A stretch of DNA of 63,910 bases, counting the filler, from Stramenopiles sp. TOSAG23-2 (taxonomy: Eukaryota): the NCBI GenBank assembly GCA_900128395.1. It is 3 parts of 3 records of this genome, joined end to end, with 100 filler letters (N's around TTAATTAATTAA, not from the genome) between each part and the next. Parts side by side here need not be neighbours in the genome. Positions count along the whole stretch, not along the records: positions 23,460 to 46,770 come from LT649490.1; 2 more parts are not named here. The stretch is one strand, 5' to 3'. Within the stretch, counting starts at the first letter, position 1. Every line of letters starts with the position of its first letter. The position numbers and the translations under genes were made by a program. Below are positions 5,856 through 46,924 of this stretch, in pieces. The notes below the pieces were generated by a model. That model was not told the DNA's origin. It saw nothing but the letters and a program-made list of their open reading frames with translations, and ran no database searches.

Positions 5856-6331
5856 ACTATTAAAATGTGTCACAGATATTTTACATTATTACCATAAATA
5901 TTTTACCATCATCGCTACTACTATACTACATAATATACTTCGTAATATGTATTATTGTCATAATCCATCGCACACAGAGTCGTCTGAATGAATTCGTCAT
6001 TTAAGATTCAAGTCGTCAGTCGTGTTTTGAGTACCTCTTCCTATACTATGTATCATTTTACTATACCAGGTACTGTACCAGGTACTAAAAATTGGGTCAG
6101 GCGGTAATAACAATATTTTCTGGCAGTTAGTTTTTTGTTGGTGCTACTATATTAGAAATATACTATATAAAATATATATATATATTTCAAAATATGTTGT
6201 TTCTAGGGAAAAAAAGAGAAAAAGAAAACAACGACAAGAGAATTTAAACAATATTATATGGTTTTTGTTTGTTTAAATCAAATAAAGTACGAAATTCATT
6301 ATAAGAAGACTCCCAGGACTAAAATTTGAAA

Positions 6332-10207: not shown

Positions 10208-10398
10208 ATGTAGATATTGAATGTCTGCGTGTGTATGTTCATGTTTAGAGAGAGGAAGTTAAAAATATTTTGTTTTATAATATTATAAAAAATGCATAAT
10301 TTGATACATACGAAAATATCATTCACATTATGATAATACTTCTTCTATCCTTTACCTTTATATATATACATACGATTTTCATTTTTACGGCCACATTT

Positions 10399-12345
10399 TT
10401 ACGGGCCACTTTCTTGTTTTTCCTTATTGATTTGTGAGATTGATATACCAGTTGGATCGGAAATGGTTCTTGATTTAGCGGATAACGATGAACGTACCTG
10501 ACTTTTCCGATTATTACCGTCTACATTATTACCATTACTGCTTTGTTTATTAATTAATAAGATATCATCACTTGTTAATGACCATCTTAACTTTGAATTG
10601 ATTGATTTTCGACCTTTTGATATTTCAATTGATTCTGAATCATCCTTTCTTAATAATGGTAAATGTACGCTTGTTCTAAAATGCCTACTTAATCGATCGA
10701 CACGATCATTACTAGTGCCATCATCATTTAAATTATCTGTATCATCATCATCGTTATTATTTCCATCTTTAAATAATGAACCAGGTTTCATACTTAATAT
10801 ATAAATACCACAAAATGATACAATACAACCAACTGGAAATAAAATCCAATTTGCAGTAGTAAATTCATCAAATTCTTTATAATATAAACCACCACCAATA
10901 ACGCCAAATATTTGATAAAATGTTATAAAGACAGGTACAATTTTCAATGCTTCGAAATATTTTAATCCTAGATTTAATATATTTGTTTGTGCTACTAATA
11001 CTAAAATCATTGCAATTAAATAGACATAGAAATCAATATTTGCAAAGCACATATAATCAATACCTTGGTTTTTCCCAAAAAAAGTTACTTTGACTAATTC
11101 AATAACTGTTTTTGCAAATATAATAGATTGACCGCCTAATAAACCAGATAAAAAAGAATAACCAAATCGTACAACAGCATAATCATATTCACCTTCTACT
11201 AACTCTAAATCTTCATAGGTTTCTTCTTCTTTACCATCATCGTTACTATTACTACTACTACTTTTACTTGCAATTAATTGTATATCTTTTGTATTAATTG
11301 CATCATCAATTGCATCATCAATTGATGAAAAATCTTTTTCTTTATTTGACATTTTTCGTAATAGTTCAACATTCACATCCAAACAACTTTTTGTTACCGT
11401 ACGTCTTTTTACAATACTTGTAACATAAAAATAAAATGTGAAAAAAATGACAACAACACATGATTCAAATATAATCATACCAAGTGATGTCCATCGTTGA
11501 AAAAAATAATCAGGAGATAAGATTGGTGTTTTTTTCGGTGCAAATACAGTTGCTAATAAACTGCCACTAATTATAATTACAGTTGCAATTAATGATTTTT
11601 TATCTAATTTTTCCTTTAATAAACATGGTGCAATAATAACATTATGAACCAAAACTAACGAAGCCAATGGTGCCAACATCGCTGCTGGCGCCATACCAAA
11701 CGTTAAAACATCTAAAATACCATCTAAAACAATTAAACTCATACCGATGATCCACAATGGCTGGGTATAATAACTACTTGTTCGATCTTTCTGTTGTTCA
11801 AGTTTATCATGAGTTAATTTTTGTAGGTTCATCCCTAACGTTGCACAGAAACTACCAATTGATGCTACCAATGCACCTAATATGAAATACGAACAAAATG
11901 TTGACGTACCTTCTATTAATTCACCATCAAAGATTGTATTATCTGTATTGTCTTTCTCACCATCTGTTATATACGTATCGCAATTATTATTCTCATTTTT
12001 TACGGGTTTATATATTTTTAACTCTTTATATTCAATTAAACTTATTGAAAAACATATAGTTGGTGATATAATAATATAATTACCATTTGATATAAATTTT
12101 GAATAGGTTGTTAATGTTGTTATTGGATTAGAGGTGGATGATACATTGAAAAATCCAGGTAATATTAATTCACCATCTTGAAATGTTAATGTCGTTCCAG
12201 TAATTATTACTTTTAATTTGTTGTTTGTTGTTGTTGTTGTTGTAAGATATTCACCTTGTATTTCACATTCATTTCCTAAGTCAGTGGATACGGTGATTGG
12301 GATGATAGTTAAAAATAGTAATATGATGATGATGGAATATTTCAT
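10399..12345 (-). CDS. NIPA-family Mg2+ transporter with a signal peptide and extracellular N-terminal extension
   Basis: GMNLQKLTH, YYTQPLWIIGM, FGMAPAAMLAPLASLVLVHN, LNLGLKYFEALKIVPVF and GGLYYKEF. Confidence 0.9.
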   Translation of the reverse strand: MKYSIIIILLFLTIIPITVSTDLGNECEIQGEYLTTTTTTNNKLKVIITGTTLTFQDGELILPGFFNVSSTSNPITTLTTYSKFISNGNYIIISPTICFSISLIEYKELKIYKPVKNENNNCDTYITDGEKDNTDNTIFDGELIEGTSTFCSYFILGALVASIGSFCATLGMNLQKLTHDKLEQQKDRTSSYYTQPLWIIGMSLIVLDGILDVLTFGMAPAAMLAPLASLVLVHNVIIAPCLLKEKLDKKSLIATVIIISGSLLATVFAPKKTPILSPDYFFQRWTSLGMIIFESCVVVIFFTFYFYVTSIVKRRTVTKSCLDVNVELLRKMSNKEKDFSSIDDAIDDAINTKDIQLIASKSSSSNSNDDGKEEETYEDLELVEGEYDYAVVRFGYSFLSGLLGGQSIIFAKTVIELVKVTFFGKNQGIDYMCFANIDFYVYLIAMILVLVAQTNILNLGLKYFEALKIVPVFITFYQIFGVIGGGLYYKEFDEFTTANWILFPVGCIVSFCGIYILSMKPGSLFKDGNNNDDDDTDNLNDDGTSNDRVDRLSRHFRTSVHLPLLRKDDSESIEISKGRKSINSKLRWSLTSDDILLINKQSSNGNNVDGNNRKSQVRSSLSAKSRTISDPTGISISQINKEKQESGP

Positions 12346-12627
12346 TTTTGCAGAAAAAAAATTATAATTATTAATATAAAATAGACTAGAAAATTACTTA
12401 AGTTTAAAGGTAAAAGATTGTCACTTTACCGTTGATGATGATTGTGTATATATATATATATATACATTGATAGATGATATGGTCTAAAAATATATCTAAA
12501 AACATAGATCTATATATAAATTTTGTATTTCTTTCCATTCATTATTTCTTACTATACATAGATACTACTACATACTATGTGCTACTACTATCTGTGAGCG
12601 TCGTGTGTTCCGACTAATGTTACTATC

Positions 12628-14024
12628 ATGCTATTACCAAAAATAACCCTACTTGATAACATGAAAATGGAAAAACAGCACGGCTTAAGCTGCCTAAGGT
12701 ACTCCAGAGGTAAACATTTTTCTTCTGATTTCTGTTAGCAGGCTGCCGTTGAAAGCCACAGCTCCACAATTAGCAGCAACAACACTTGGATTGAACCCAG
12801 TGTATAACAAATATCCTACAGTGACTGCAGCAATTGCACAATCGTTCCCAATTGATGGTACAGCCACATCCTATGTCAACGTTTCTTTTTGAACTGATGG
12901 TATCAAATAAAATTCTTTGCCTAAATTTTACAGTGTTTTAATTTTTTCATTATCCAAAGTTCTCTTCAATACCTGCATGCATTCTGCAATGGTCATACAT
13001 GTGTGTTTGTACAAGCCAAATGCGGTTATTGCTTTAACAGCAAAGACGAGCGGATCAAGGCAGAAGCCAACTGGAATAGCATCAGCTACTGAAATCTACA
13101 GCAACAATGCATATGACAACTTACATTTGGAAAACCTAAGAAAGGTATTGAATATAAAACTCTATGTACCTACTGCTGAGAGAAAAAAGTGGATGGGAAC
13201 AACAAATATTCCAATAGAAACAATTGATAATGAGCTTGAAATACATGAAATCAGACAATGTATGATGAAGGATAATTTGTTGTTCAATTACCAGGTAGAA
13301 ATGTCTGCAGATGGGTTATGGAAAAATTTAAACTCTTGAAAACACCGGAAAAATTTTGGAAATTTTGGAAAAAATTTTGTAAAAGCATTGATATTCCCTG
13401 GAGAACAAGTGATGTTGCTCATCGTTTGGGCTTTATTGGGTTCTGTGAATCATTTGGCTACATAGTTTACAACTTAAGTTGCAACCAAAAGCTGCGCCCG
13501 GATTGGTACAAGAATGGCAGTATAGCACCGTGGTACAATAAGCAGAACGAGAAGTTTTTACAAAAGTCAAAGATGGGAAAGTGTTTTTTTAGCTCTTTAA
13601 ATTCTAAATATTTTAAGTAATCTTATGTTCATAAACTCTAATCTTGTGAACAATATGCGTACGGCAAATAGGACAAGCACTTACTTTTTGAATACATTCT
13701 TTGTAATATATTTGTATTTATAGAAGAAAGAAAATGTCAGAAGAAATGGAAATAGAAATGGAAATGGAAATGGAAAAAGAAATACAAAAGGTATTTGATG
13801 GTATTAAAAAGATTGTAATGGTTACCCAAATGGAACCAGTGTATCGTTTGATTTGGCTACATGGCCTTGAGAAAATAAAAACGAGTGAGTTTGGTCAAAA
13901 AGAAATGACTCAGGCCCGTATGGGCATGTATGGAAATGAAGTATATGCGCCAGATATGGGACTTTTTAAAAAAGTGTCCAAATCAGAGTATAATGTCATG
14001 GGATACCTTGCCAGCTTGCACTAG
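12628..14024 (+). pseudogene. Fragmented coding-like island of unknown origin
   Basis: Consecutive same-strand ORF pieces (12917-13339, 13318-13620, 13734-14024) with protein-like composition and higher GC than the flanks. No recognisable motif. Confidence 0.3.
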
Positions 14025-14666
14025 AGCTAGCGGGCTAGCTGGCTAGCTCGAACTATAGCATGGAGATAGCATTATCAACTCCTACGGGAGATCATGTATA
14101 CTACCAAGTACAATTTCTCGGAAGGTGAAGTGGTTTGGTTGGCTCAGAAAAGGGAGGACGGTTATTTTTTAGAAGGAAGAAATCTGGAAATCCGATTCAA
14201 AAAAATCAACAGTAACCACGGCACGATAGCATGTAAATAGCATTATTCGAATAAGGTGAAATATGGCGGAAGAGAAAAGACCTTTCTTCGATTGAGTCAC
14301 AATGCTATTCCCATATTATGTGCTGTGGTCAACGCGTAAGTCTACCACGAATTCCCACTGGAAACCAGTTCTCAAAACCAAATTTTGTTGGTCGATTTTT
14401 GAAAATAACAGGTCAATACCATTGGAAAAGATTTGATTTCGTGCGTAGTCATGAAAATGGATATGCTCGAACATAGAACATACGTAGAATTAGATATGTT
14501 GAACTGTGGGGAGAACGAAGAGACAACAACGTATATAGATCAAAACAACAACAAAAATAATTTCAGTGTAGAACAGCACGTAGATTTATAAATAATAATA
14601 TTCGTTTATCATACCCGTTGTAAAACTTTGAAAGTTTAATTGTCATATATATATATATATTTCAAT

Positions 14667-16166
14667 ATGTTGATGAAAACAACTGGTAAAATGTCTGGTC
14701 ATGGCAGTGGAAAAGCTATCAACGGTAGGTGGACAAGAGAGGAACATGAATTGTTTTTAAAAGCATTAAATGAATATGGTAGAGAATGGAAGAAAGTGGC
14801 GAAGAAAATCAAGACTAGATCATCTGCACAAATTCGTAGCCATGCACAGAAATATTTTCAAAAACTATCAAAAGAGAGAAAAGCTGGTTTACACGGCGGT
14901 GCTGCTGCTTTACATGGTTCTCACGTAGTTCTAGATAAAAGTAATAAGAAAAAAGCATCTAATACGGGAGATAAGACTTTGATAAAGAAGAAACGAAAAA
15001 TGAAAGGAAAGAGCTTGAATGCTGCATATTCGAAGAAGCAAAAGCAAAGGCCGGTATCGCCAAACTTTGTATCAAAACCTGTTAATACATATGGAGGAGG
15101 AAGATTTTCACCTGTACAAAAAACACGAGCAAGTCCAAAAGTTATGGATGCTTCTTTGTCCTTACACTCAGCATATGGTGATGCGACTGCTATTATATCA
15201 TCTCCATCGCGAACGTCAACCTCTTCATTCACATCACCTTTCGTGACACGAAACTTTGTACAAACAATAGCAACTAAAAAGAAACTAGTTCAATCATGGG
15301 AGCAGAAACTTCGAACGTTACTAAGTAAACGGAAAAAAGTATCTGGTTTTACAAAAGGCGCTAATTTAGGGATGACGGCCAACACAACAATAAACGTGTT
15401 TCCAACTAGTACAACAGGAGTTGCACCACATGATGATTTAGTCGTGACACCACGTTTATCGCCTTTGAACATACCAGAAAACGAACGTGAAGTATCACGT
15501 ATACGCGAACGTTTAAATCGACGAGATGAGTTAATCAAAGTCGATAAAAAAATTATAGATGTCATTGATTCAGCATGTACTGCACCATGTATTTGTGGAG
15601 AACCAAAATTAATTTTTCATTGTAGAAATCAACAAGAGAAAGAAGTAGGAAATGGTAACAGTTACATATGTTTAACTGTTCGTCAAAAGATGTTGAATAT
15701 ATTTCAACGCTCGTATGAGAAAAATGGGCAATATTCAACACCACAAAGCACGGTTCTTTTAAAAGATTGGAAGAGAATCAATTTAGAAGTTGCTAATGCA
15801 AAAGCGGCAGAGTTAAGTTATCAAAATGCAGAAATGTTATATATGGCCTTATCACCAATTGCACGTGAAAATTTGAGTATATTAGATAATGAAGAATTGT
15901 CAGCTGTGCAAGTTTTAATTGGGAGCATGATGGGTATTCGACCGAGGAAAACGAAAGGTGGTAAAAAGAAGACACAACAACTTTCCATTACAACAACTAC
16001 TACAACAAAAACGACTATTAATTATGATGATGATGAGGAAGAAGATGATGCAAGTGAATCAGAATCGGATGAAGAAGAAGAATCCAGTTCGGAGGAGGAA
16101 GATACAGATGATGATGATGATTCTGAATCTGAATCAGATGATAGTGAAAGTGACGAGGAAGAATAA
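14667..16166 (+). CDS. SHAQKYF-class single-repeat MYB transcription factor with an acidic tail
   Basis: GRWTREEHELFLKALNEYGREWKKVA...TRSSAQIRSHAQKYF. Confidence 0.93.
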   Translation: MLMKTTGKMSGHGSGKAINGRWTREEHELFLKALNEYGREWKKVAKKIKTRSSAQIRSHAQKYFQKLSKERKAGLHGGAAALHGSHVVLDKSNKKKASNTGDKTLIKKKRKMKGKSLNAAYSKKQKQRPVSPNFVSKPVNTYGGGRFSPVQKTRASPKVMDASLSLHSAYGDATAIISSPSRTSTSSFTSPFVTRNFVQTIATKKKLVQSWEQKLRTLLSKRKKVSGFTKGANLGMTANTTINVFPTSTTGVAPHDDLVVTPRLSPLNIPENEREVSRIRERLNRRDELIKVDKKIIDVIDSACTAPCICGEPKLIFHCRNQQEKEVGNGNSYICLTVRQKMLNIFQRSYEKNGQYSTPQSTVLLKDWKRINLEVANAKAAELSYQNAEMLYMALSPIARENLSILDNEELSAVQVLIGSMMGIRPRKTKGGKKKTQQLSITTTTTTKTTINYDDDEEEDDASESESDEEEESSSEEEDTDDDDDSESESDDSESDEEE

Positions 16167-16766
16167 GTCACGCAATTTTATAGAGAAACATAGACGTACG
16201 TATGTATATACATACATACATTCAATGTTATTAATGTGTACAAAAACAGAAAGTTAGAGAAATAATAGCATGCCAAATATATGCGTGCCATGTACATAAT
16301 ATTTAAAATTTTCAAAAAAAAAAAAAAAGAAACAAAAAAATTACAAAAAAAAAAGTAAAAATTACACAAAATATACGTGTGTCGAAGAGAGAGATGTGGA
16401 ACATAGGGGAACATAATCTCTTTTGTTGTGATTTAGAGTGTATGATAATAAAAGAAACAGAGCAACAAGGTATAAAATATTTAAAATATTGTTTAATTAT
16501 TTAATATTATATTTTTATTTAAAATTATTATGATGCACAAATATAAAAAGAATGCGTTTGGTTCGTTGTTGCGTGTGTACTCTCCACATATGTCTACTCG
16601 TACTTTACCTCTTCTTTTAATTTATACGCGTTTTTATTTATTTATTAAATAAGCAGTTATGCATTAATTAAATATCATATATTTTAAATAAGCAGAGATA
16701 TGCATATCTCATATATATATATATTCATTTAAAATAATATATATGATGTATATATATCATACAACA

Positions 16767-19211
16767 CTACAAACCCTCAGGAAATTGATTCACAACTACC
16801 ATTTCTGTAATATTATTCCCACCGACACTAAATTGAACTTTACATTTCATTGCAATCTTCTTTTTACCTTGTGCAGCATTAATTAAATTCAATACTTGCG
16901 TTGCATTACCACCCATAGAAACGACGGTACTACTTGCTGGCTGAATATTTAATTTTAAAAATTTAGGGACAGCAACTTGAAAAGATAAATTTGAAATATC
17001 TCCACTATTGCTTTCATTATAAAAGGTCGCAGTCACACGTGTTTGCTCTGGCGAACCTGGCTTATCAAAAGAAAAATTTATACGCAATCCATTTTTTTGG
17101 AATGCTGTTATATCTGGGAATGATGGTGAGCTATTATCGCCCCCAAAAAGTCCTAAGATATTATCATTCGAATTGTTATTTTGTGGAGCTGGTGGATTGT
17201 TGCCACCTCCACCACCAAAGATATCTAGTATATCGTTATTGTTACTATTGTTATTATTGTTGTTACTATTGTTGCCATTTGCTTGTTGCTGACCACCACC
17301 ACCACCAGAGCCAAAAATATCAGCTAAATCTAATAAATCATCACTGTCACTACCATTTTCTCCACCATTTTGATCAGCAATGATGTTTTCCTCCTTGCTT
17401 TTGTTACCGTTGCTTTGGACACTTTCTAATCGGCTGCGCTGTTGTTGCTTCGTTTGATCAGGAACTGGCATTGGTTTCAACGTATTTGGCCTTACACTTT
17501 CCATCTGAGGTTTCAATAAATTGGAATATTCACATGAACGTGCTTGAAGCTCCATGTTCATTGATGTGGAATACATACCAACAATCTTTTTCAATGCTTG
17601 TATTGTATCCCCACTTGAAAACCTAGTCGTTAATTTCAAACTGGCACTAAGAATATACGATTTGGTTAATAATGTTGAATTATGCAATTTCAACAATTTA
17701 TTAAACATTTGAACAATCTCGTCTTCTATTTCATCTTGGGATTTTCCATCCATTTCCACTTTGTCACCATATTCACCTAGGCACCATATGGCAGCATGAT
17801 TCAAGCCAATTTGGGATTGGTCCTCGTCCAATGCAGCATATAATTTAGTGACACCATACTGTTTGTATTCATCATCCTGGCCAATCAAGGAAATTGTTTG
17901 CGAGACAATATCATCCCCACACGTGTTTCCTGCTAATTGCAACATGGAAATCATTGTATCAATATGCCATGCACGATCTGGACTGAAATCATTCACCACG
18001 GATGCAGTACGTTGACATAAATCAGCTTTTACATCATCATCTGCAACAACTAAATAATTTAACATTTCACGTGCCAATGCTTTGACATTTTTCGAATTTA
18101 CCAATGCATACAGTAATTCCAATGCACGACGACGTATGGAAACATCTGGATCTTTTAAACAATCCACAATAGTTGAACGATGGCGTTGTACTGCATCCAT
18201 GTCACTTTTCACAACACGTGCTAACATGGTCAATGCAATATATCGTGTATTATTATCACGATGTAATAAGAATCGTCCTAATATATTAATTGCAAGTACT
18301 TTCAAACCACTTTCACTTTCAATTTCCATGATAGTATTTACGCATGCATATAAAATCGCATTTCCAGCATTTTTATTTGATTCCGTATTGGTAGCTACTT
18401 GTGCCAATACATCATTCATTTCATCCGATGCATCCTCATCCCCATTACCAAGTACAGCTAGGATTTTCAATAAGCGTACTTGTAAAAATGGATCTGTAAT
18501 GCCACCGACATCATGTTCCGGGGAGAAATTATTCACCACTAAATTTTTTAACACACGTACAAGTGTTGGCACTAATCTACGGAATGTGTCAACCATTGAT
18601 GGATCTTCCTCCATAGCCGTTTGCAACAAAGTTGCGCCGGTTAATAATACCGCATGGTTACGATCTGACATCAAGCTTGCTATACGATCAACACAATCTT
18701 CGATTAAATCTGGTACTTTTTGCAATATACGAACACATGCTAACGCTGCTTTTTTTCGAATATATGAATTCGAGTTTCTCATAGCTTTGTCAACCTCTGG
18801 GAACAAATCGCGACACATATCTTCGCTAGCGATGTTGCCAATTGCAGTCAATGCTAAACCAACAACATATTGATTTTTATCAATAACATCGTTTTTTACA
18901 CTATTTGTTACCAACATAAGTGTCTCCTCCGTCTCCGTCATTAAAAGCATTAAACCTAAATATCCAATTCTTTTTTCAGAAAATTTTGAACCAGCGATTA
19001 ATTTTAAACATTCCATTTGACCAAAGTGTGATGGATAACCAAGCATATGTATGAACAACAACTTGGCTACATTCCTATGTCTTAAATTTGATTTTTCATC
19101 TTTAAACGCTGTACGTATTAATGCACATTCTTTTGTAATTGTAGCCCTTTCCTCCGACATTGTTTTACAGGCTCTTACATTACGTATCAATTCACGTAAT
19201 TGTATACTCAT
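16767..19211 (-). CDS. AP1G1: AP-1 adaptor complex gamma subunit
   Basis: LRELIRNVRACKT..EER, HMLGYPSHFGQMECLKL and EHDVGGITDPFLQV, a hinge with DLLDL, and a C-terminal ear (FQVAVPK). Confidence 0.97.
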   Translation of the reverse strand: MSIQLRELIRNVRACKTMSEERATITKECALIRTAFKDEKSNLRHRNVAKLLFIHMLGYPSHFGQMECLKLIAGSKFSEKRIGYLGLMLLMTETEETLMLVTNSVKNDVIDKNQYVVGLALTAIGNIASEDMCRDLFPEVDKAMRNSNSYIRKKAALACVRILQKVPDLIEDCVDRIASLMSDRNHAVLLTGATLLQTAMEEDPSMVDTFRRLVPTLVRVLKNLVVNNFSPEHDVGGITDPFLQVRLLKILAVLGNGDEDASDEMNDVLAQVATNTESNKNAGNAILYACVNTIMEIESESGLKVLAINILGRFLLHRDNNTRYIALTMLARVVKSDMDAVQRHRSTIVDCLKDPDVSIRRRALELLYALVNSKNVKALAREMLNYLVVADDDVKADLCQRTASVVNDFSPDRAWHIDTMISMLQLAGNTCGDDIVSQTISLIGQDDEYKQYGVTKLYAALDEDQSQIGLNHAAIWCLGEYGDKVEMDGKSQDEIEDEIVQMFNKLLKLHNSTLLTKSYILSASLKLTTRFSSGDTIQALKKIVGMYSTSMNMELQARSCEYSNLLKPQMESVRPNTLKPMPVPDQTKQQQRSRLESVQSNGNKSKEENIIADQNGGENGSDSDDLLDLADIFGSGGGGGQQQANGNNSNNNNNNSNNNDILDIFGGGGGNNPPAPQNNNSNDNILGLFGGDNSSPSFPDITAFQKNGLRINFSFDKPGSPEQTRVTATFYNESNSGDISNLSFQVAVPKFLKLNIQPASSTVVSMGGNATQVLNLINAAQGKKKIAMKCKVQFSVGGNNITEMVVVNQFPEGL

Positions 19212-19971: not shown

Positions 19972-20328
19972 ATGTTCCGAAATTTATTGACATCAGCACA
20001 AAGAGTTGCAACCAAACAACGTGCTACCATGGGAAGAACGGTACAAAAACGTAATATGGGAGTTGCAAAAAAATTGCCACCTAACAGAGTAGCTGACGAA
20101 GCAAACTTAATGAAACAGTGGGGACAAGATCCAGGTACATACCCAATCATTGTTGTAATTGGCTTTGCATTGTGTGTTATGGTTTTCGAATGGGGCCATG
20201 GTTTAAATGCACCATCTGTACACATTGGCAAAGGCGATCGTGGAACTTTGGATTATTGTGAAAATGACAGAGATGCAGCATCTGCAAAAGCTTGGGCTTC
20301 ACACAGACGCGATAGTCATTTCAAGTAA
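19972..20328 (+). CDS. NDUFA4/B12D-like small mitochondrial membrane protein
   Basis: Arg-rich, acid-free presequence followed by QDPGTYPIIVVIGFAL and a single TM segment. Confidence 0.7.
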   Translation: MFRNLLTSAQRVATKQRATMGRTVQKRNMGVAKKLPPNRVADEANLMKQWGQDPGTYPIIVVIGFALCVMVFEWGHGLNAPSVHIGKGDRGTLDYCENDRDAASAKAWASHRRDSHFK

Positions 20329-20877
20329 ATACATACATAATTAATAGATTCGTTTCATAATATTAAGATGATTGTTTTTTTAGACAAAAGCGTCGTATAT
20401 ATATATACACACTTAGTTATTGTAGATATGTATGCAGTCAAGAGATATCATTATGGAGTTTTACTTTTTTATTTAATATTGATACAGAGAGAAACAATAT
20501 TTTGCCTCCTCTGCGTTTATTTATCAATATTTGTCTTACTAAATCCACATAATGTATTATTTAATCTCTAGAACTAAGAGATGTGCATGATCTGTGAGCG
20601 TGTGCGTGATATGATGATTTGATTTTAAAAATATTTTTATACAGAAATAATATAATATTGATCTATATTTTTTAAAATAATAATACCGTACAATTAAACA
20701 AAAGAAAATAGCTAAAAAATCGTCGTGTCAGAGTACACAGATATATTTAACAGATAAACCGGGTCTTTAAAATATTTACAATAAAAGTCCTTTTAAAATA
20801 TATGCATACACTGAGAAGCATAATGAAGTTCGCACGTAACGTTCTCCTTATCATATAAAATACGAATCATGCCATAA

Positions 20878-22668
20878 TTATTTTTGTCTTTTGCTATACA
20901 CCCGTAAAACACAACGTTCATTTATACAGCTCCGTTCCTTCATGGATTTAAACGTATATTTTGCTTCACCGTTTTCCATCGTCATAAATCGTTCAATCAT
21001 ATCTGTTCCACTTTTACTTTCTTGAAATAACTGTCCAGAGACAAATGGCAACAATACAAATGTTCGAAGTATCCCCTTTTCAACCAAACGTAACATTTCA
21101 ACATCAATAGGAAGTTCAAAGGGTATTAAATGTTGCAGCATTTTTTTCGCGCCTTGATAAGATACAATATAACTCACAGAGTTAATGTGTGCACATGGTG
21201 TACCTGTAATATCAACAAATAATCCACCACTAGTATTATAAAATGCATGAATACAATCATGAGGTACACCATGTTGTCGCAGACTTTCCATTCCTACATA
21301 CGGTGAAGATCCAAAATCTGTTACGATTACATCCCAATCATTACCAATTGTATCATATATCGCATTTATCCCTACATTTATATGTTCCTTCGCATTTGGC
21401 AATATAACTGCATCATCTTCTAATACCAACGCATAAGGTAAGCCTAATTTTACAATGTCTCGCCATATAGATATATGACTCAAGGAACAACCAATTGCAC
21501 CTTGATGTATAATCGTATCTCTTGAATCCACTAAAACTTCTTTCAAATCTTCCAAAGGCACCATCATTCCATCTACAGCTGGCATATAATGTATGTATTT
21601 AAAATCCATACCCGCTCGTTTTAATTCACTTTGTATGTACATACGTCGATATGGACTAGACATTAAATTTATTACAAATATATCTAAACGATTATTTGAT
21701 AACATATATTTACCTACAATAGTCATTCCATGTTGTATTTGCTTCACGTCATCCTTTTTTAATGTTTTTCTATCATAATTGTCTTGTTTCTTATAATTTA
21801 AAATTCGTTGGTTTGAATCTTTGACAATGTTATCTAATGTACTCGGGGCGCCTACAGTAGGTTTTAAATTAACAATGTTTTTCTTTTGCATTGCGTTTTC
21901 AAAAATCAATTTGGAACTAGTCTGTCTATTTTTTGCTAATTTGATTTGCGACGATAATAAGTGTAGAAAATGATCTAATGCTGGGGAAGACGATGATGAT
22001 TTAGTGTCGTCATCTTCTTTCTTTTTATTATTATTATTATTATTATTATTTATATTACTAGGATTAGTGTCTGTCAACTGTAAATGTTTTTTCAAAAATG
22101 TTTTTGCTGTATTTTTTATATGATCATCATCATTTTGAAACTGGGTGTAAGGATGCAAAGCCAATGCTGCTGCCCCGTCTATTAACATCGGTGTTACCAC
22201 GTGTGGTTTGTACTGGTTCGCATTATGATTTTCGTATGATTTTTCGTTAGTTAAAGTTGTTAAGGATGATGGGGTTGATATGAACTTTGAAGTATTCAAT
22301 GCTGTACAAGTATCTTTTAAACGCTGCAAAATGGTTAAAAATGTATCTTCTTTATTGCCACGATCGAATTGGTCATGTAATGCTTTGGCTCCCATCGAAG
22401 TTGCAAATGAGTAAATATTTTCGTTTAAAGTATACTCTGGCCACAATGGAATATATGAAGCGATAACGTTATCCAATGCAACTGGTATATAGTATGCTGG
22501 ATACATTGAAGGTATTTTTAAATTATAATAACTCTTAATATAGTCACCGTCATCATTAATGTCAATTGTTTTTTCACTCGGCGTAGCCTCTTCGATCTCT
22601 ACTTGTATCGCGCATAGTAGTAGCATAAACGTGCATGTAATGTAAGATATTATACGATATGAAATCAT
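20878..22668 (-). CDS. Glycosyltransferase family 25 protein with a signal anchor
   Basis: IFVINLMSSPYRR, GAIGCSLSHISIW, ALVLEDDA and SYIVSYQGAKKML...PID. Confidence 0.9.
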   Translation of the reverse strand: MISYRIISYITCTFMLLLCAIQVEIEEATPSEKTIDINDDGDYIKSYYNLKIPSMYPAYYIPVALDNVIASYIPLWPEYTLNENIYSFATSMGAKALHDQFDRGNKEDTFLTILQRLKDTCTALNTSKFISTPSSLTTLTNEKSYENHNANQYKPHVVTPMLIDGAAALALHPYTQFQNDDDHIKNTAKTFLKKHLQLTDTNPSNINNNNNNNNKKKEDDDTKSSSSSPALDHFLHLLSSQIKLAKNRQTSSKLIFENAMQKKNIVNLKPTVGAPSTLDNIVKDSNQRILNYKKQDNYDRKTLKKDDVKQIQHGMTIVGKYMLSNNRLDIFVINLMSSPYRRMYIQSELKRAGMDFKYIHYMPAVDGMMVPLEDLKEVLVDSRDTIIHQGAIGCSLSHISIWRDIVKLGLPYALVLEDDAVILPNAKEHINVGINAIYDTIGNDWDVIVTDFGSSPYVGMESLRQHGVPHDCIHAFYNTSGGLFVDITGTPCAHINSVSYIVSYQGAKKMLQHLIPFELPIDVEMLRLVEKGILRTFVLLPFVSGQLFQESKSGTDMIERFMTMENGEAKYTFKSMKERSCINERCVLRVYSKRQK

Positions 22669-23359
22669 ACTCTTTAAACAATTGTTATTATTTATATTAT
22701 ATATATGATCTTGAAGAAGTTTGTAAAGTGGAATATTTATCCGTGTCTTCTATTACTATATATTATTGGTCTAATTATAAGTGCCAAGTGCCGTGAAAGG
22801 CAAGGACCCCTGCCCTGAATGATGATGAAACGATAGAAATGTCGTTAAAGAAGGAGAAATTTAAGTGCATTTCATTAACACTCGAAGGATAAATTTTGAC
22901 CGGTGTTAATGAAATTGTAGTGTGGCTAGAAGTGCGATATAGCAGGGTGATAAGTTCATTAGGAGTATCCAAAAGGCGGAGATTTGTTTTTTTCTTATGT
23001 GAGAATCGGTTTTTACGGTGATTTGTTTTTTTGTTATGTGAGAATCGGGTTTTTCGGTGGAAGTGTACACCTTTTCTTGACAATAAATGTTTGCTACTAA
23101 TTTTTCTCCTTAACCAAAAAGCGTACAATAAAGGAAATTTATGTGTGTTTTAAGTGACTTTGCATTACGATATCATGAATTTTGCTGTTTCTTGTATTTT
23201 CACTAACAGGTACATAGCAGCCTCCAAAGTAATTTCAACTCTATTGGAAAACACGCCCCTTTTCATTCATTTTTAATGCTATGTCTATGTTAAGACTTTT
23301 TTACGCCGTCACAGCACTATTTTGACGAAAAATTACCTGCTATTGCGGCCTAATTAGTG

Positions 23360-23459
23360 NNNNNNNNNNNNNNNNNNNNNNNNNNNNNNNNNNNNNNNNN
23401 NNNTTAATTAATTAANNNNNNNNNNNNNNNNNNNNNNNNNNNNNNNNNNNNNNNNNNNN
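23360..23459. other. Artificial contig linker
   Basis: 44 N + TTAATTAATTAA (stops in all six frames) + 44 N. Confidence 0.98.
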
Positions 23460-25589
23460 CATTTCATTTATAATTTCCTCAACTTTATCGAAATCATCAT
23501 TCTTTCCGTACAGATTAATAAGTGTGCTGTATGTAATAACATTAGGTTTAATATTATTTGATTTCATTTCATTTAAGTATTGTTCAACTTTATCAAAATA
23601 ACCATTTTTACCAAAGATACTAATCAGTGTGTTATATATAAAAATATTAGGTTTAATATTATTTGATTTATCATCAATTTTATCAAAATCGCCATTCTTT
23701 CCAAATACAGAAATTAATGTATTGTGTATAACACCATTCGGTTCAATATTATTTAATTTCATTTCATTCAAATACTCCTCAACTTTATCAAGGTCATTTT
23801 TCTTTCCGTACGCATTAATAAGTGTGCTGTATGTGATAATATTAAGTTCAATATTATTTAATTTCATTTCATTTAAACATTCATCAACTTTATCAAAATC
23901 GCCATTCTTTCCATTTGCAGTTTAATTATATAACATACATATTGGTAGGCCAAGTTATAATAAACATTTCATTTCATTTACGAATTCATCAACTTTATCT
24001 AGGCCACCATTCTTTCCACACGCATCAATTAAAGTGTTGTATGTACGAAGAGTCGGCTCAACATTATTTGATTTCATTTCTTTATAATATTTTTCAACTT
24101 TATTGAACTTCTTCCTCTTCACACATGCGTTAATAAGCATGTTATAGTGAAAAACTTTTGGCTTGATATTTTTTAATTTCATTTCCTTGAAACATTTTTC
24201 AATTTTTTTCACATTGCCTATCTTTGCGTATGCTTTAATCAACGCACTGTATGTACTTTTATTTGGTTTAATATTATTTGATAACATTTCATCTATGTAT
24301 TTCTTAACTGTCTGTATGTCACCATTCTTTCCGTAGAAACTAATCAGTGTGGTATATGTAACAACATCAGGTTTAATATTATTTGATTTCATTTCATTTA
24401 TGTATTCATTAACTTTATCGTAGTCACCATTTTTACCATAGATACTAATCAGTGTGTTATATATAAAAATATTTCCAAATTATAATAAACTAAACATCTC
24501 ATCGACATATTCATCAACTTTAATGTATTCATCATTCTTAGCACATGCATTAATAAGTATACTATACATTGAATTGCTAGGTTTAATATACTTTATTTTC
24601 ATTTCCTTAAAAACATTTTCAATTCCGTTTAAATCGCACTTTTTACCATACATATACATATTAATTAGTATATGGTATGTATAAAAGTCCGGCTCAATGC
24701 CATTCAATTTCATTTCGTTCATATATTCATCAACTTTATCGAAATCACCATTCTTTTGATGAATATTGATTAGTGTGCTGTAAAAATTAGCACGAAGTTC
24801 AATATTATTTGATCTCATTTCATTGATATACTCATCAACTTTATCGAACTCACCATTCTTTCCATATAGATTAATAAGTGTATTGTACATAACACCATTC
24901 GGTTCAATATTATTTGATTTCATTTCGTTGAAAACTGCTTCAACTTTATTGAAATCGCCATGCTTTCCGTACAGATTAATAAGTGTGCTGTATGTAATAA
25001 CATCAGGTTTAATATTATTTGATTTCATTTCATTTAAGTATTGTTCAACTTTAGCAAAATTACCATTCTTTCCATACATATTAATCAGTATGTTATATGT
25101 AAAAATATCAGGTTCAATGTTATTAAGTTTCATTTCATTAAAATATAGTTCAGCATCAGCTATTCTATTCATGCTACTACAACGTTGTAGGAGAATCTTA
25201 TATGTTATAAGAGATATAGGAACTCCATTTTTTTTCATATCTTCAAAAGCTACTGTAAAGTCCTTGTATTTTTTTATGCGTCTAAGTTCCTTATCCTCTT
25301 TTGATACCACATGTTCTTTATCTGTTACAGTATTTGATGAACCAAAAAAATCAAATACAGCACCAGCTTTTTCAGAAAATGTAGTAGAGTATAATCGTTT
25401 ACTATCATGCATTTCATCAACACCAAGTTTATTACTCCCCACCGTAAATAAAAATGGTATTTTGTTATCATAGCGGTGGTTATTAAAGCACTGTTTTTGC
25501 ATTTGATGCATACGATATTCACCTCGAACAATCCTTTTTATTTGCATCCCACCACGTCGTGGCATCATTTTCATTGCAATCCTCATCAT
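23460..25589 (-). CDS. P-class PPR protein, about 17 repeats, mitochondrial-type presequence, 3' truncated by the contig end
   Basis: 35-aa repeats (YNTLINxYGKNGDFDKVxEYxNEMKSNNIKPD). The three listed ORFs are in one frame; all interrupting stops lie inside the two in-place complemented segments. Confidence 0.9.
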
Positions 25590-25858
25590 ATTTACTTCTT
25601 TCCTTTCTATTGTACCAACCAATGTATAAAACGGACCAAAGACGCGCTCCAACAACACACACACACACAACACACACCTTTCATACATAATTTTTCTATA
25701 TTACATAATTTTTCCACGTGAAAATCGAAGTAATGTTTGAAAAGAAGAGCAGCTGGCAAGTACCAACGAACAGTACTATTTACCTGTTGTTGGTTAGCAT
25801 TGACATAGCATTAAAATCACAAATTTCAGAGTTTCATAAGTGGTTGAACCGTTTTAAG

Positions 25859-27080
25859 TTACCAAACTGACTATTTAGAGTGAATAGTAACAATAATATC
25901 CGATAATCAGTAATTATTGACTATATCCAGGATATTATTCAATGATTATTTTTAGATGATTAAAATTCCTGAAATGTTATTGATTTTTTTAAGGCAAAAT
26001 CCATCGCCATCACCTCATGACAAAAGCAGCATCAATATTATTGGATGTGAACACACACATTTGTATCTAAAAAATAATACATATCTCCTAATGGTGCGAA
26101 ATGAGCAATCATCTGGCAATAACATATCAATTTATCTTAGGCCGAACAAACAAGATATAATTAAGTTACCAAACTGACTATTTAGAGTGAATAGTAACAA
26201 TAATATCCGATAATAAATAATTATTGACTATATCTAGGAGATTATTCAATGATTATTTTTAGATGAAAAATTCCTGAAATGTTATTGATTTAAGGCAAAT
26301 TTGTATCTAAAAAATAATACATATCTCCTAATGGTGCGAAATGAGCAATCATCTGGCAATAACATATCAATTTATCTTAGGCCGAACAAACAAGATATAA
26401 GACGATTGAAATATATAAAATATCAACAACAAAAATATATATAAGTGTTTTGTAGATCGTACCTTTATACAATTTGAAACAAAAACCCACTTGAATTGGA
26501 AGAAAAAAGATATATAAATATACTTTTGGAAGATACGTATTAATAACAAATAAGCAACAAAACAATTTGGGAAAATAATAACAAATAATAATAACAAAAT
26601 AATATCATGAAATCTGATCGGGCCAGTAACCTCCTTCCTTTAGTATTGCTCCTTGCAATTATAACAACAACTGTAGTAGTTGAAAATGTATACGCACAAT
26701 CAGATAAAAAACAAACTGCACCATCCGAACGTGTAATGATAAATAATGAATTGGAACAAATAAGTGTTTTGTAGATCGTACCTTTATACAATTTGAAACA
26801 AAAACCCACTTGAATTGTAAGAAAAAAGATATATTAAATATACTTTTGGAAGAGACGTATTAATAACAAATAAGCACAAAAACATTTTTTTGGGAAAATA
26901 ATAACAAATAATAATAACAAAATAATACCATGAAATCTGATCGAACCATTAACATCCTCCCTTTAGTATTGCTCCTTGCAATTATAACAACAACTGTAGT
27001 AGTTGAAAATATATATGCACAATCAGATGAAAAACAAACTGCACCATCCGAACGTGTAATGATAAATAATGAATTGGAAC
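25859..27080. repeat. Nested local duplications (about 300-320 bp periods)
   Basis: 25859-26000 recurs near 26166, 26060-26160 recurs near 26300, and 26441-26760 recurs at 26761-27080 with several substitutions. Confidence 0.85.
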
Positions 27081-27874
27081 AAATACCTGAATTATTTACA
27101 TATACAAAATGGGAAGATAATAAAAGGAAAGGAAACCGAGGGGAAATAAATTTGAAAAACAAACTGCACCATCCGAACGTGTAATGATAAATAATGAATT
27201 GGAACAAATACCTGAATTATTTACATATACAAAATGGGAAGATAATAGCCCAACTGTTTTAATTGCAGCAGCTAATGCACTTGCTGATTACCATGCCCTC
27301 GCTGTGCCACATTTAGCAGATGATAAAGATTATACCTCACAAAGTAAATATTTGACTGATGCCATGAATACTATTATTGGACAAATGGATAAATTCAATC
27401 TAAAACGAGATAAAAAGTCGGTGCAAATCATTGTAGATTTTAAAGATATTATCAGTAAATTATATTCAAAATTAAATGAATGGCCAACAACTATGGTATG
27501 GAGCTCTGCTGAAAGGGTAAAGGAAGACGGACCAGCAAGAATTCCGGAGGATAAGCTTTTAGTACATCGAGGATTTGACATTGCAAACTTCTTTTTAAGT
27601 GAAGTTATAGGTGATAGTTTAAACTTTGAAGTACAACAAGCAGTTAAATTGATGAAACGAACGAAGGAAAAACAGGAAAGTACTTTATTATGACATTGCA
27701 AACTTCTTTTTAAGTGAAGTTATAGGTGATAGTTTAAACTTTGAAGTACAACAAGCAGTTAAATTGATGAAACGAACGAAGGAAAAACAGGAAAGTACTT
27801 TATTAAATTTAGCACATAAACAAAGAGCAGTGGAGCTATTTGCTTCGGAATCAGAACCAAAATCGGAGTTGTAA
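26930..27874 (+). CDS. Secretory-pathway protein of unknown function ending in KSEL, broken by two local duplications
   Basis: Signal peptide ILPLVLLLAIITTTVVV. Removing the duplicated inserts near 27121-27240 and 27692-27804 gives one ORF ending ...ESEPKSEL*. Confidence 0.7.
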
Positions 27875-28063
27875 TAAAAGGAAAGGAAACCGAGGGGAAA
27901 TAAATTTGACCTGAACCTTTGTAATTAATGCTGTGTCACTAAATACAAATTTGTTGTGCAGTGTTGGTGTGTGTGTGTGTGTGTGTGTGTGCACGTTTTT
28001 TAAAAAAATTAATATCATATATAAATTATATATATTCTGAGTTTTAAAGAGACTCAGGATGTT

Positions 28064-28315
28064 GTGAGCTTTGTTGGGCGCGAAATACAACTAACGAAGG
28101 ACTATACAACAGGTAATGCAACATTTAAACAAGGAAGTAGAGGGACAGTTATTGAGGTGCCCTCCCGTAAGGATGGAAAATTGAAAGTTAAATTGGATAA
28201 CGACAATGAGAAAACATTTAGATTGATTAAAGAATGTGATTTACAACTTTATGAAGGAGGACCTCTTTCATCTAGCTCTGAATCACAGACAGCGGAAACA
28301 TCTTTTGAATACTAA
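28064..28315 (+). CDS. Possible terminal exon or gene fragment with an SH3/KOW-like beta barrel
   Basis: VGREIQLTKDY...FKQGSRGTVIEV...LKVKLD pattern; no ATG start. Confidence 0.35.
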   Translation: MSFVGREIQLTKDYTTGNATFKQGSRGTVIEVPSRKDGKLKVKLDNDNEKTFRLIKECDLQLYEGGPLSSSSESQTAETSFEY

Positions 28316-28742
28316 ATAATTTTTACCAAAATTTATAAATCATTTTCGATTTGAGATGTTAATAAACGGGAGTAAAAGAATTTTATATAACATATGAGTA
28401 AGAGAAAAACACATATATATAATATGATAATATCCTTTTTTACCTCATCGGTAATTTTCTGTTACAGGAAATTACTAGGTATTGACACATTTTTATGAGA
28501 TTAGACTATCATATTAATAATTTAATAATTTGGGCCCAAGTCACTGTATTTCTTTTGAGAGTAGGAATTGTCATGAGTAGGGAAAATTAAAAAATTAAAA
28601 TTTACGTGTGTGTTAAATACATTTTACGAAGTAATTATTAAAAAATCCTTTATCTCTCTGATTTTTACGAGTAATTTACGCGCGTGTAAAAACACTTATT
28701 TTTATATTTTTCGTAATATTTCATATTTTTTCTCTCTCGCGC

Positions 28743-30462
28743 TCAAAAAATATCCTTTATCAATGATATGAATGATGATCGCTTATCAACTTTTCTATCT
28801 TTTGGTTTTTTTTTTTTCAATTCTTTTTTTTCTCTTTGTGTTGGTGTTTTGACTTCTTCCAAATTAGTGATGTATTGTCGATGTTTTTTATGGATTGTTT
28901 CTAATTTAGAAATATCTGAATCTTTTGCTTCGATTTGTTTTTCTAATGACTTAATATATTCATTTTTATGGTTATAATTTTCTTTATAACCGATATAGTT
29001 TAATGTGTTCTTGATAAACTGGTCCTGTTCGACGCCGTTCTTCTTCATCTCTTTTAAGTAGTTTTTTACCTTTTTGAAACTCTTGTTCTTACCGTAGGAA
29101 ACAAGTAATGTATTGTATATATGCGAATTTAGACTTATGCCATTCTTCTTCATCTCAGAAACATACATCTCCACCTCTTCGAATTGTTTTTTTTTTCCAA
29201 GTACATAAAGTAATGAATTGTAATGATACACGTCTGGTTCAAGATTCTTTGCTTCCTTCATTTCATTGAAATACTTTTTCGTGTCTTCCAAATTTCCACT
29301 TTTAGCACAACGGTTAAGGACAATACCGTATGTTTTGGTGGTAATGGAAATGTCTCTCTTTTTCATGTCTTCAAAAGCTAATATAATATTCTTATATCTT
29401 CTTATCTTCCTTAGTATCATATCGTTATCTGATGACGTAACTTCTGTGCAAGTCTGGAAATTAAAATTTCCACCCATTTTATTTCCCTTGCGCAATTTAT
29501 CTCGCGTTAATGTATTATATGTAACATGATTTGGTTTAATACCATTTAATTTCATTTCCTGTAAACATTCATCAACTTTAGCAAAATCGCCATGCTTTCC
29601 ATACAGATTAACTAGTGTGTTGTGTGTGACAATATTCTGTTTCACATTATTTGATTTCATTTCACTTAAATATTCATCAATTTTAGCAAAATTACCATTC
29701 TTTCCATATGCAGAAATTAATATATTGTATGTATAACAATCCGGTTCAATATTATTTGATTTCATTTCATTCAAATACTTCTCAACTTTATTGATTTCAT
29801 TACTCCTTGAAAATCTATTAATTAATATATTATATGTAATAACATTAGGTTTAATTTTCTTAAGTTTCATTTCATTAAAATATAGGTCTACTTTTATTGA
29901 TTTCATTACTCCTTGAAAATCTATTAATTAATATATTATATGTAATAACATTAGGTTTAATTTTCTTAAGTTTCATTTCATTAAAATATAGGTCTACTTC
30001 GTCTACTTTACTCATTCTACCGCAACGGTGAAGGAGAATATTGTATGTTACGACAGTAAGAGGTATTCCATTTTTTTTCATATCTTCAAATGCTAATTTA
30101 AATTTGTTGTAATTATTTATCGCCATGAGTTTTTTATCTTCCTCTGATGCACCAGTAAGTAGTCCTATATTCTTATCACTTGGGCTATTTAAATTATTTT
30201 TATTGTTTAAATCATTTGATATACCAAAAACATCAAGCACAGTACCAATTTTTTCAGAAAATGTAGAGTACAATCGTTTACTATTATATTGTTCATTTAC
30301 ATCACTTCCCAGTATCAATAATTCTTGTTGTTTTCTACCTAGCCCAGCATGATGGTTGTATAAAAATTGTTTTTGTATTTGACTTATATGATTATATCGG
30401 GGCATCTGTTTCATTTGCCTTCCACCATGTCGTGGCATCATTTTCATCGCTATCCTCATCAT
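28743..30462 (-). CDS. Second PPR protein, paralogue of 23460-25589, with a C-terminal coiled coil
   Basis: Same N-terminus (MMRIAMKMMPR, SKRLYST) and PPR repeats. A 106-bp duplication (29787-29892 / 29893-29998) explains the frameshift between the two ORFs. Confidence 0.88.
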
Positions 30463-30995
30463 CTTGTCCACTCAAGAAGAACAAAAGATCCAAAAAATAC
30501 GTATAAGATATAACAGGCACACAACGTACATATATTAACATATTTCCTATATTCATTCATTCTCGTTCTTATTTATTGTTTTACTTTTGTATTTAATACG
30601 TGCAATACCGTATACAGTAGCTCTATCACATAATAACCATTTATTATTATTATTTTTTCAATTATAAAAAAAAAAAAAAAAAAGTTCGCATTTTTTTATT
30701 TTTGTTCGCCTGCTAAGGCCTGCTGTGTAGTGTTATTTTTTTCTTCCATAAAAAAATCGTCCAACACCACCACCAACATAATAAATACATATATCTCTCC
30801 AGCTCTCTCCCTTTTGTGGTAAACATGTAAAAATGGAGATAGAGAGATAGATATTGTATATTTTACTTGAAAGATAATAGTATTCCTGACAATATACGAT
30901 CACAAAGTACATAGCAGTAACAATATATAACTCCCGATAATCCCCGACAATAAATCAATTTTGCATATATATAAACAAAATAAATTTGGAGAAAC

Positions 30996-32171
30996 ATGTC
31001 ATATACAGTCCCAATGAATGAAAATAATAATAATGAACAAAATAATGAAATAAACAGCAGTCAAGGAAATACCGTTGAGGATTTACCATCGTTCTTAAAA
31101 GCTACGGTCATAAGACATGGAAATCCTATATTTCGAAAACTGTTAGTAGTGATAATCGCTTTGGGGGGACTTCATCATATATTTATGTGGTCGCAAATAA
31201 CGCAATCTGTTGCTGCTGGGATTATTATATATATTTTGTTTTGTGCGAGTGCTTTGGTGGAATTTTTTACACCACCAAATTTCTCACACGGCTTCTTTTT
31301 AGAAATTCTTTTATTGGATATGAAAAAAGCTGAAAAAATAAATACTGAAATTAAAAATAGCATATATGGAAATTTGGTTATCATGGGTATCATAATAATG
31401 CCTGCATTTATTTATGTGTTTATTTTTCCATTTGCACAAAGTCAAATGCTTGGATCAAATACATTTGTAATTACTGTATCAGGTACAATTATTAGTTATA
31501 TTATGGGAATTATTATATGTATTTATGGTATAGGCACTAGCCTTTTAGTTCCGATGCTTACACCTATTTGGGAAGCTAAAGTGAAAGCATATTTGAAAAG
31601 GGTTCGTGAAATTTTAATTATGGAAAATAATGAAATAAATATGGAAAATGGAAAAGAGAAGATTGACTATATCGTGAATGAATTATCAAATGAGCAAATT
31701 AAAATTGATACGTTTGCGTCAAAAATGTCAAAAGGTTTGAGTCCATATTACTCATCGATGATCATTATTTGCACTTTGTTTGTTGTGGTGTCTGCCGTTT
31801 TTGTAATCACGCCAACCCTTGGAAGCGGTGCACGCATAAATATTATTATTGTTTTCTCTCTGATGGGTTTAATGATGCTTTATTGGTTATATGTTACTTT
31901 ACAAGGTCTTTCTCAACCAAGCCGTATTTGGGAAGAAACAAAATCGAAATTATTATCAGATGCAAAAATTCAACAAGCTAAGATAAATCTGGGGTGGACA
32001 CCAGAAATTTTTAATGAATGGATAGATAATCATCAATGCAAAGGATTAAAAGCATTTGGTTTTCATGTCACATCTGCTATTGTTCGTAAAGGATTTTCAG
32101 CATTTGCATCTGTGCTTACAATTGCAGTCTATTTTCTAGCTCGTGAAGAATTAAGAGGAATGTTGTCGTGA
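30996..32171 (+). CDS. Multi-pass membrane protein resembling gustatory-receptor-like (GRL/7TMIC, DUF3537-like) proteins
   Basis: 391 aa with about 7 hydrophobic segments, a long helical loop between TM4 and TM5, and C-terminal GLKAFGFHVTSAIVRKGFSAFASVLTIAVYFL. Confidence 0.6.
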   Translation: MSYTVPMNENNNNEQNNEINSSQGNTVEDLPSFLKATVIRHGNPIFRKLLVVIIALGGLHHIFMWSQITQSVAAGIIIYILFCASALVEFFTPPNFSHGFFLEILLLDMKKAEKINTEIKNSIYGNLVIMGIIIMPAFIYVFIFPFAQSQMLGSNTFVITVSGTIISYIMGIIICIYGIGTSLLVPMLTPIWEAKVKAYLKRVREILIMENNEINMENGKEKIDYIVNELSNEQIKIDTFASKMSKGLSPYYSSMIIICTLFVVVSAVFVITPTLGSGARINIIIVFSLMGLMMLYWLYVTLQGLSQPSRIWEETKSKLLSDAKIQQAKINLGWTPEIFNEWIDNHQCKGLKAFGFHVTSAIVRKGFSAFASVLTIAVYFLAREELRGMLS

Positions 32172-36352: not shown

Positions 36353-37455
36353 ATGTATAAACGAAAATCAGTACCGAAGACTACTCATCCAGAGTTTTTA
36401 ACGGTGGAGGAACAATTAGTATCGTCTAATATATTACCTATGAAATCATTGTATAGTTCAAAATCAACACCTGTGATATACGAATCAACAAAACGAATAC
36501 AACCAGTTGCAAATACTACGTGGACACGATCAATACGTAATCGTAAACGACGAATGAATGAATTCCCAGCGATGAGACGCAATGAAAGCAAACAAACTTC
36601 TACCTTTGGTGTCGTAGGGCACCAAGAAGGTAGTGAAGTAGATATATTAGAAAGACAACATAGACATAGGCCAGGGTAAGTTTTAGATTATCTTTTTAAT
36701 ATACACATAATATATTACACGCATTCCAATAATACATCTTCGTAGTAAATAATAAAAAGATGTTTATATATATACTCTTTCAGGAAATATATAAAAAAAT
36801 ATAATGTTTTAACTAACAACAACACTCTATTTCACACACACACATATGTATAATATACACAAAACAATATAGACCTGCATCATATGATGTAAAACCATTA
36901 CCAAGTAAAGGTGGTAAATTTAACTTATCAAGAGCAAAATCTGATTTAGAATGGAAAATGTATTTCGCAAGTAAAATTCCTGGGCCAGCTGATTTTGATC
37001 CTCAACCATTGAAAAACAGAGGTGGTAAATTTAGTAATGCAAATCCAAAATCAGATGTAGAATGGTTAATATACCATGCAAGTATGAAACCAGGCGTAGG
37101 AGAATATGATTTAGTCCAATCATTTAAAAATTTAACCGGTCCAGGACCATGTGCACGTATATCAAGCATTGAACGTGGTTTGCAAAAGCAAAGTAATTAC
37201 AAAGCTAAAAAAGTAGATAGAACGATTAAAGGGAAAGATATTGTCGTGCAAAAACAGGAACATATACGTCGTAAAAAGAAAAAACCAATGGCACGTGGAA
37301 TCAAAGGTGAATCGCCTGTACGCGTAACAAAGACTGTAAAGAAGAAAGGATTAAATGTCATGAAAAGTAAAAACAAAGGTGATATTGTATATGTACAAAA
37401 GGTAGATAAATTAGGACGTGTACGTGTAGCAGCAGTGAAAGTTCCAAGATTTTAA
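36353..37455 (+). CDS. SHIPPO/ODF3-like PGP-repeat axonemal protein; two exons (36353-36675, 36873-37455)
   Basis: GT-AG intron 36676-36872 (GTAAGT...ACTAAC...TAG). Splicing rebuilds RPGPASYD, followed in frame by IPGPADFD and KPGVGEYD. Confidence 0.82.
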
Positions 37456-37836
37456 ATGTATATATAATGCGCAGAGATGAAGTTTAATAAAAAAAAAATA
37501 TGTAAAATTGTAATAAATTGTAGAAAATATATGATATACCGTATATTATTTTTTATTTTACACACACGTAAAAAGACTTCTTTGACTATTAAAGTTTACA
37601 CATCATATTATATATATATATTTGCATCTATCGTCCAGAACAGAAATAAACTATTATTTTTACATTGTACAATTTTGTACGATCAACCAAAAACCTTGTG
37701 TGTGTGTAACAAACACAAATGATACACACACTCCTATGATATTCAACATATCATATATATTTATTAAAATATTCGTAATATTATATTTATAATAATAAAT
37801 TATTCATATGCATGTAGATACGTGCATAAATAATAT

Positions 37837-38130: not shown

Positions 38131-38949
38131 GATATATATATATATAAGTTCCTTCTCTTTTTCACTTACTATGTTTTCCTTCAAAGTATGACAATACATC
38201 TTTTTACTTTTCTTTATATATATATCGTTTATCGATACGAATGGTCAAAAATTCATCTTTTTTGATCTTAATTAAATTCAGTATTTTATGTTATTCTAAC
38301 TTCCCTTTCAAGTATAAATTAGTATGCTATCATTTGATAGGATTTCATGCAAATTTTGTCGTGATTCAGCATATCCGAAATTCCAAAAAACAAATGAAAA
38401 TATATGATGGAAATATCCGCATAAATCATATTGATTGGGAATATAACTTGTATGTATATATACTAATAAGTATAACAACACGTTTTGTTCCAAGATTTTC
38501 TACATTTAGCATACGAATAGCGTTAACTTTGGCCCCCATCCACGACATGTTTTCTGCTCTACGGCATGTTTCCATATTTGCGTATCGGTTTTTTCATATA
38601 GTCTATAGTATTTACATGCTAAACAGCTTATTTAATTAATAAGAAGCCATATGACTTCTTTTTTTTAATGAAAGACACACACATTTCCAATAAAATATAT
38701 ATAATAGATGGGAGATAGAAATAGATAGATGTTGGTTGTGTGAGATGAAAACAATTTCTGGATATATATATATTGTATTTGATAACTATAATATATCATT
38801 CGTTTTTGTAGTGTTGTATGCGTGTGAAAACAACGTGTATAGTATAGAAATCACTACATATATACATATATATATACACACACAATTTTATTATTATTTA
38901 TTAATATTACGTAGATAGATATATATCAAATTTATAATAATAAAAGATC

Positions 38950-46870: not shown

Positions 46871-46924
46871 AGAAAGAGTGGGAAAGATGGTGGGCTGTAT
46901 GTATAAATTAAAAAAAAACAAAAT

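Follow-up and report, generated by a model that had tools for sequence, protein, structure and literature searches.

Within the window (the whole stretch of 63,910 nucleotides analysed here, from Stramenopiles sp. TOSAG23-2), a gene for a pentatricopeptide repeat (PPR) protein is interrupted by two short tracts that read as the complement, in place and without reversal, of the repeat sequence expected there. The question raised by this locus is whether these letters belong to the genome of the organism or only to its sequence record. Coordinates of the tracts, their unaltered counterparts and the features around them are given in Table 1.

Table 1. Positions in the window of the two tracts, their normal forms and the gene that carries them.
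Feature	Position	Strand	Description
P-type PPR gene	23460..25688	-	5' complete, 3' cut by contig end; ~16 repeats of 35 residues
Tract 1	23921..23965	-	45 bases, in-place complement; contains two stop codons
Tract 1 counterpart, normal form	29714..29758	-	in paralogous PPR gene 28743-30471
Tract 2	24474..24494	-	in-place complement of 21-base repeat linker; FSLL*FG in place of KSNNIKP
21-base linker, unaltered copies (n=4)	23544..23564, 23649..23669, 24369..24389, 25005..25025	-	BLAST 21/21
Contig-join linker	23360..23459	.	100 bases: 44 N + TTAATTAATTAA + 44 N; ends the contig of the PPR gene

Two complemented tracts in a PPR gene

The gene has a repeat period of 35 residues, equal to 105 bases, and its frame measures 743 codons when counted from the first ATG; from the second, at 25589, it measures 710. 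This second start is shared with the paralog in the window and with metagenome fragment P0121. In either half of the gene, and in the paralog too, the Pfam models PPR_2, PPR, PPR_1, PPR_3 and PPR_long exceeded their curated cut-offs, PPR_2 reaching E-values of 4e-55 and 1e-81 on the two halves of the gene; the N-terminus is Met/Arg-rich, and it is basic like those of the paralog, P0121 and P0122. The first-pass annotation of this DNA had attributed all premature stops to the two tracts, and each of the three stops in the frame does lie inside them; when both tracts were complemented back by script, the 743 codons held no stop. It had also predicted that undoing the tracts would give a single ORF of about 710 codons. 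This held for the 710 stop-free codons from the ATG at 25589, but the ORF is incomplete and open into the linker at 23360–23459. As it runs into this contig-join linker at 23460, the 3' end of the gene is missing. The linker with its TTAATTAATTAA core carries stops in all frames, a type of linker described as a means of chaining contigs (10.1101/2023.02.08.527609). With the tracts set aside, what remains is an ordinary P-type PPR gene, intact except for the part cut off at the contig end.

The + strand at 24474–24494 has the letters TCCAAATTATAATAAACTAAA, so that the coding strand (their reverse complement) reads TTT AGT TTA TTA TAA TTT GGA, the plain complement of which translates as KSNNIKP. 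Tract 2 had been called the exact complement of this linker and we confirmed the match at 21/21 bases in all four sister repeats, using BLAST of the in-place-complemented window against the window itself (same direction). The tract occupies unit positions 10–30, in register with the 105-base repeat, and in its restored form the 21-mer is common to five units of the PPR array. It does not behave as an inversion, its reverse complement TTTAGTTTATTATAATTTGGA being different from the expected + strand linker. Very probably the + strand of the organism reads AGGTTTAATATTATTTGATTT at 24474–24494, like the repeats around it, and a single PPR frame stays open through the gene.

Tract 1 lies in a different unit, at unit positions 14–58, and after complementing it is identical at 44/45 bases to its counterpart in the paralogous gene. 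The unaltered flanks of the tract also match the paralog (52/60 and 14/15 bases), which argues that its content is native and not imported. That the two tracts begin at nearly the same phase of the repeat, as had been observed at the outset, proved correct: the start, at unit position 10 or 14, directly follows EM or EMK. Both leave length, register and frame unchanged. When 15 repeat units were aligned to their consensus, complement runs in the remaining units did not exceed 4 bases.

A chance origin of the complement matches is excluded. With low-complexity sequence excluded, the window has 16 in-place-complement matches of 21-mers; every one of them touches these tracts and none lies elsewhere, and 19 of 20 first-order Markov simulations yielded no such match (the other yielded 12). 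By ORF-pair and codon log-odds scans, which have little power for short tracts, no further convincing tract was found in the window. The PPR tracts accounted for two of 26 same-frame ORF pairs; complementing also removed stops in several others, for example at 38637–38693, 40695–40736, 37453–37467 and 20326–20340, an outcome often expected by chance. The log-odds scan ranked tract 1 first (10.9) and placed tract 2 (5.4) within the noise, and it therefore cannot detect short tracts. Its next match, at 39562–39618, looks like a hydrophobic segment and was rejected as a further tract.

Paralog, relatives and genomic neighbourhood

The region 20878–32171 holds two paralogous PPR genes on one strand, about 3 kb apart, with near-identical basic N-termini (MMRIAMKMMPR...). 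A 120-base stretch of the first (23861–23980) is far closer to 29654–29773 than are the rest of the two paralogs to each other, which hints at gene conversion between them. The paralog (28743–30471, - strand) contains an exact tandem duplication of 106 bases at 29787–29999 (a 107-base exact match at a spacing of 106) that shifts its frame and splits it into two ORFs; removing one copy would let the frame read through. This duplication looks like an unmerged contig overlap.

Searches for relatives of the locus returned little beyond common PPR proteins. A pattern search of viral_contigs gave eight matches and one of metagenome_contigs 71 protein pattern matches, neither with any relative, and an exact 30-base pattern had no match in metagenome_contigs. 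Compared with proteins, the repeat region matched generic PPR proteins only, at no more than 37% identity among the 120 matches listed; a full-library protein search gave 26831 matches, essentially generic PPR proteins, and none of seven window ORFs was found by exact look-up in the protein collection. The N-terminal region had no match among proteins of 408–1301 residues and two among shorter ones, P0121 (226 aa, 99%) and P0122 (38%). P0121 is a 226-residue metagenome fragment that ends before the tracts. In P0122, DEFVNEM is followed by a normal PPR linker, in weak agreement with tract 1 as restored.

The window is nuclear DNA of an AT-rich, gene-dense marine eukaryote. Its nuclear eukaryotic nature follows from the neighbouring ORFs, which by Pfam encode adaptin, Nrap, Myb proteins, a NIPA transporter and a family-25 glycosyltransferase; the G+C content of the window is 31.5%, and the runs containing its DNA are mostly marine metagenomes. 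A giant-virus origin, considered for the very high contig depth described below, was rejected given these eukaryotic nuclear neighbours (adaptin, Nrap, Myb, NIPA) and the lack of relatives in viral_contigs. The Nrap gene is itself split, by a run of 88 N at 48992–49079 that is without the TTAATTAATTAA core, unlike the 100-base linkers at 23360–23459 and 46771–46870. Nrap domains 1–2 lie at 49080–50949 and domains 3–6 at 46871–48988, and the first 42 positions of domain 3 are missing.

Read-derived contigs across the tracts

Four public runs, each from a different study and here called X1, X5, X3 and X4, supplied read-derived contigs (k=31) that were aligned to 23460–25700; the comparison rests on the 32 contig pieces listed out of 242. 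X5 is from the same strain as the window, as its listed pieces 26–32 show no differing letter over 24233–25623, and it is possibly the source sample. X1, X3 and X4 represent independent populations, with many scattered differences from the window.

Read evidence had been named by the first-pass annotation as the check on an assembly artefact, and it came down on the side of that reading: the read-derived contigs carry normal letters in place of the complemented ones, in 4/4 runs at tract 1 and in 3/4 at tract 2. At tract 2, an X4 contig fits the window to 24473 and then continues with the 21 un-complemented linker letters AGGTTTAATATTATTTGATTT. One contig each from X5, X3 and X4 has 26–27 un-complemented letters (equal to 23643/23644–23669) joined directly to 24495, and a contig of X1 ceases to fit exactly at 24495 with 27 letters left over. 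At tract 1, contigs of X1, X3 and X4 have the 17 un-complemented letters CGGTTCAATATTATTTG before 23966, and X1 also has nine, AAATTAATA, after 23920. In X5, a 417-letter contig spans 23846–24262 (417 window bases) with every listed indel at 23922–23965 and a net length change of zero. Among the contig pieces listed, none from the four runs follows the complemented form of the window through either tract. Positions 23949, 23975, 24468 and 24494 are true contig ends in these independent k=31 assemblies.

Two further places in the gene were noted. One PPR unit is 15 bases (five codons) short at 23664–23670, directly after the linker copy at 23649–23669, and two X5 contigs that fit up to 23669 then read CATTTCATTTA, unlike the window; the short unit may be another mis-join, or these may only be contigs of sister repeats. 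At 25054–25057 the sole listed X5 contig covering this point has three extra letters compared with the window, as does part of the X3 depth (12.3 of 37.5); the extra letters may be polymorphic, may belong to a contig from a different copy of the repeat, or may mark a small deletion in the record. Contig word depth over 23460–25700 was about 5000–17000 in X5 outside the most repeated bins and about 1300–3800 in X1, while the contigs of these two runs total only 6.6 and 20.8 million letters, respectively. Depths in the thousands are not usual for eukaryotic DNA and suggest that the material was amplified or enriched.

Origin of the tracts and comparison with known systems

Tract 2 is almost certainly an artefact of the sequence record and not part of the genome, given that read-derived contigs show un-complemented letters and that a complement without reversal has no known mutational route. 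We know of no mutation or DNA rearrangement with this outcome, which the polarity of DNA opposes; inversion yields the reverse complement. That the tracts are real DNA, in a pseudogenised PPR gene or a strain variant, has accordingly next to no probability: the window itself and nothing else speaks for it, whereas no known mutational process gives the form observed, tract 2 is not a reverse complement, and the runs with normal letters at the tracts include X5, otherwise identical to the window.

Patch, merge or flagged-letter handling is the software step that we infer behind the tracts, which would have arisen by a half-done reverse complement, the letters of a patch having been complemented and the reversal omitted; the letters of the opposite strand, reversed without being complemented, would give the equivalent outcome. 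Only two short patches (21 and 45 bases) would be affected, where a k-mer or de Bruijn assembler breaks the repeat array and must patch or merge the ends, and where the patching, merging or flagged-letter step would have written the patch wrongly. Gap-fill or overlap letters might, for example, pass through a separate code path, or lower-case fill letters be overlooked by a case-sensitive complement. An assembler filling gaps at repeats, as the first-pass annotation had proposed, is a plausible source of the tracts because they sit where independent k=31 contigs end or begin. When a k-mer graph was built from the restored window, the k-mer that ends at 24494 formed a branch for each k in the range 15–55, as restored 24440–24494 is an exact copy of 23615–23669. 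Neither end of tract 1 (23920/23921, 23965/23966) is a branch point at any k tested in this window-only graph, and the lengths of 21 and 45 match no single k, which counts against a simple patch. On balance we favour a patch at a contig junction as the origin of the tracts. A mask decided by the sequence alone was considered and rejected, the four other copies of the 21-mer being untouched.

Two other routes to an artefact were weighed against a patch at a contig junction. The tracts could have arisen after assembly, during record editing, format conversion or preparation of the window, with no relation to the resolution of repeats; the window is visibly post-processed, its contigs being chained by 100-base linkers and all its letters being in one case. 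Such a later edit, if random, would not be expected to fall twice in one gene, at nearly equal phases of the repeat and where independent assemblies break, and no further tract appeared in the other 61 kb, by weak tests; we therefore think this route improbable. A decoding error in colour space would account well for the form of the tracts. In two-base encoding a sequence shares its colour string with its complement, and two suitable miscalls complement everything between them, with an exact in-place complement of unchanged length as the predicted result; worked by hand, four of the four junctions need one class of colour change. There is nonetheless no sign of colour-space data, and a gene with two pairs of miscalls would be unlikely in a consensus of deep data. 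Searches of the 64 kb for the remaining base maps (A↔C with G↔T; A↔G with C↔T) gave nine and six short matches, respectively, none of them in the PPR arrays. All told, an origin in colour space is very improbable.

The tracts are not real biology and their value is only as a data-quality flag. As the record stands, what is one gene looks like three pieces of a pseudogene, for which gene callers would report fragments or a pseudogene, and errors of this kind keep length and composition and so escape the usual misassembly checks. It is possible, if rather doubtful, that both tracts are only the exposed part of a systematic fault in software, in which the patches or merges of this assembly pipeline were written complemented but not reversed. 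If this were true, many more such patches would lie unseen in non-repetitive sequence, both in this assembly and in other public ones made likewise, and other genes of the assembly would be silently damaged where no repeat reveals the damage. It would then be a so far undescribed class of database error, one that a simple scan of repeat families for in-place-complement matches, or a scan for broken frames healed by complementing, could expose. Phrase searches of the literature for complement-only artefacts gave unrelated papers only, a result that covers those phrases.

Among known assembly faults, mis-assembly by inversion is alike in that the strand is mishandled locally at a repeat, with a broken frame as the result and no counterpart in the reads; it differs in giving the reverse complement, whereas here the complement stands in place with length and register kept. 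The setting of tandem 105-base units with common exact k-mers is shared with the repeat collapse, repeat expansion and unmerged overlaps of short-read assemblies, and the neighbouring paralog with its exact 106-base tandem duplication resembles the last of these; such faults change copy number or length, however, while the tracts alter letters only. Translation errors in colour space can likewise convert the bases lying between two miscalls to their in-place complement, but they should give all three base maps equally often and in the PPR arrays only the complement map was seen. The gene itself compares closely with P-class pentatricopeptide repeat proteins, with which it shares tandem 35-residue motifs and strong Pfam matches, and has nothing unusual about it once both tracts are read back.
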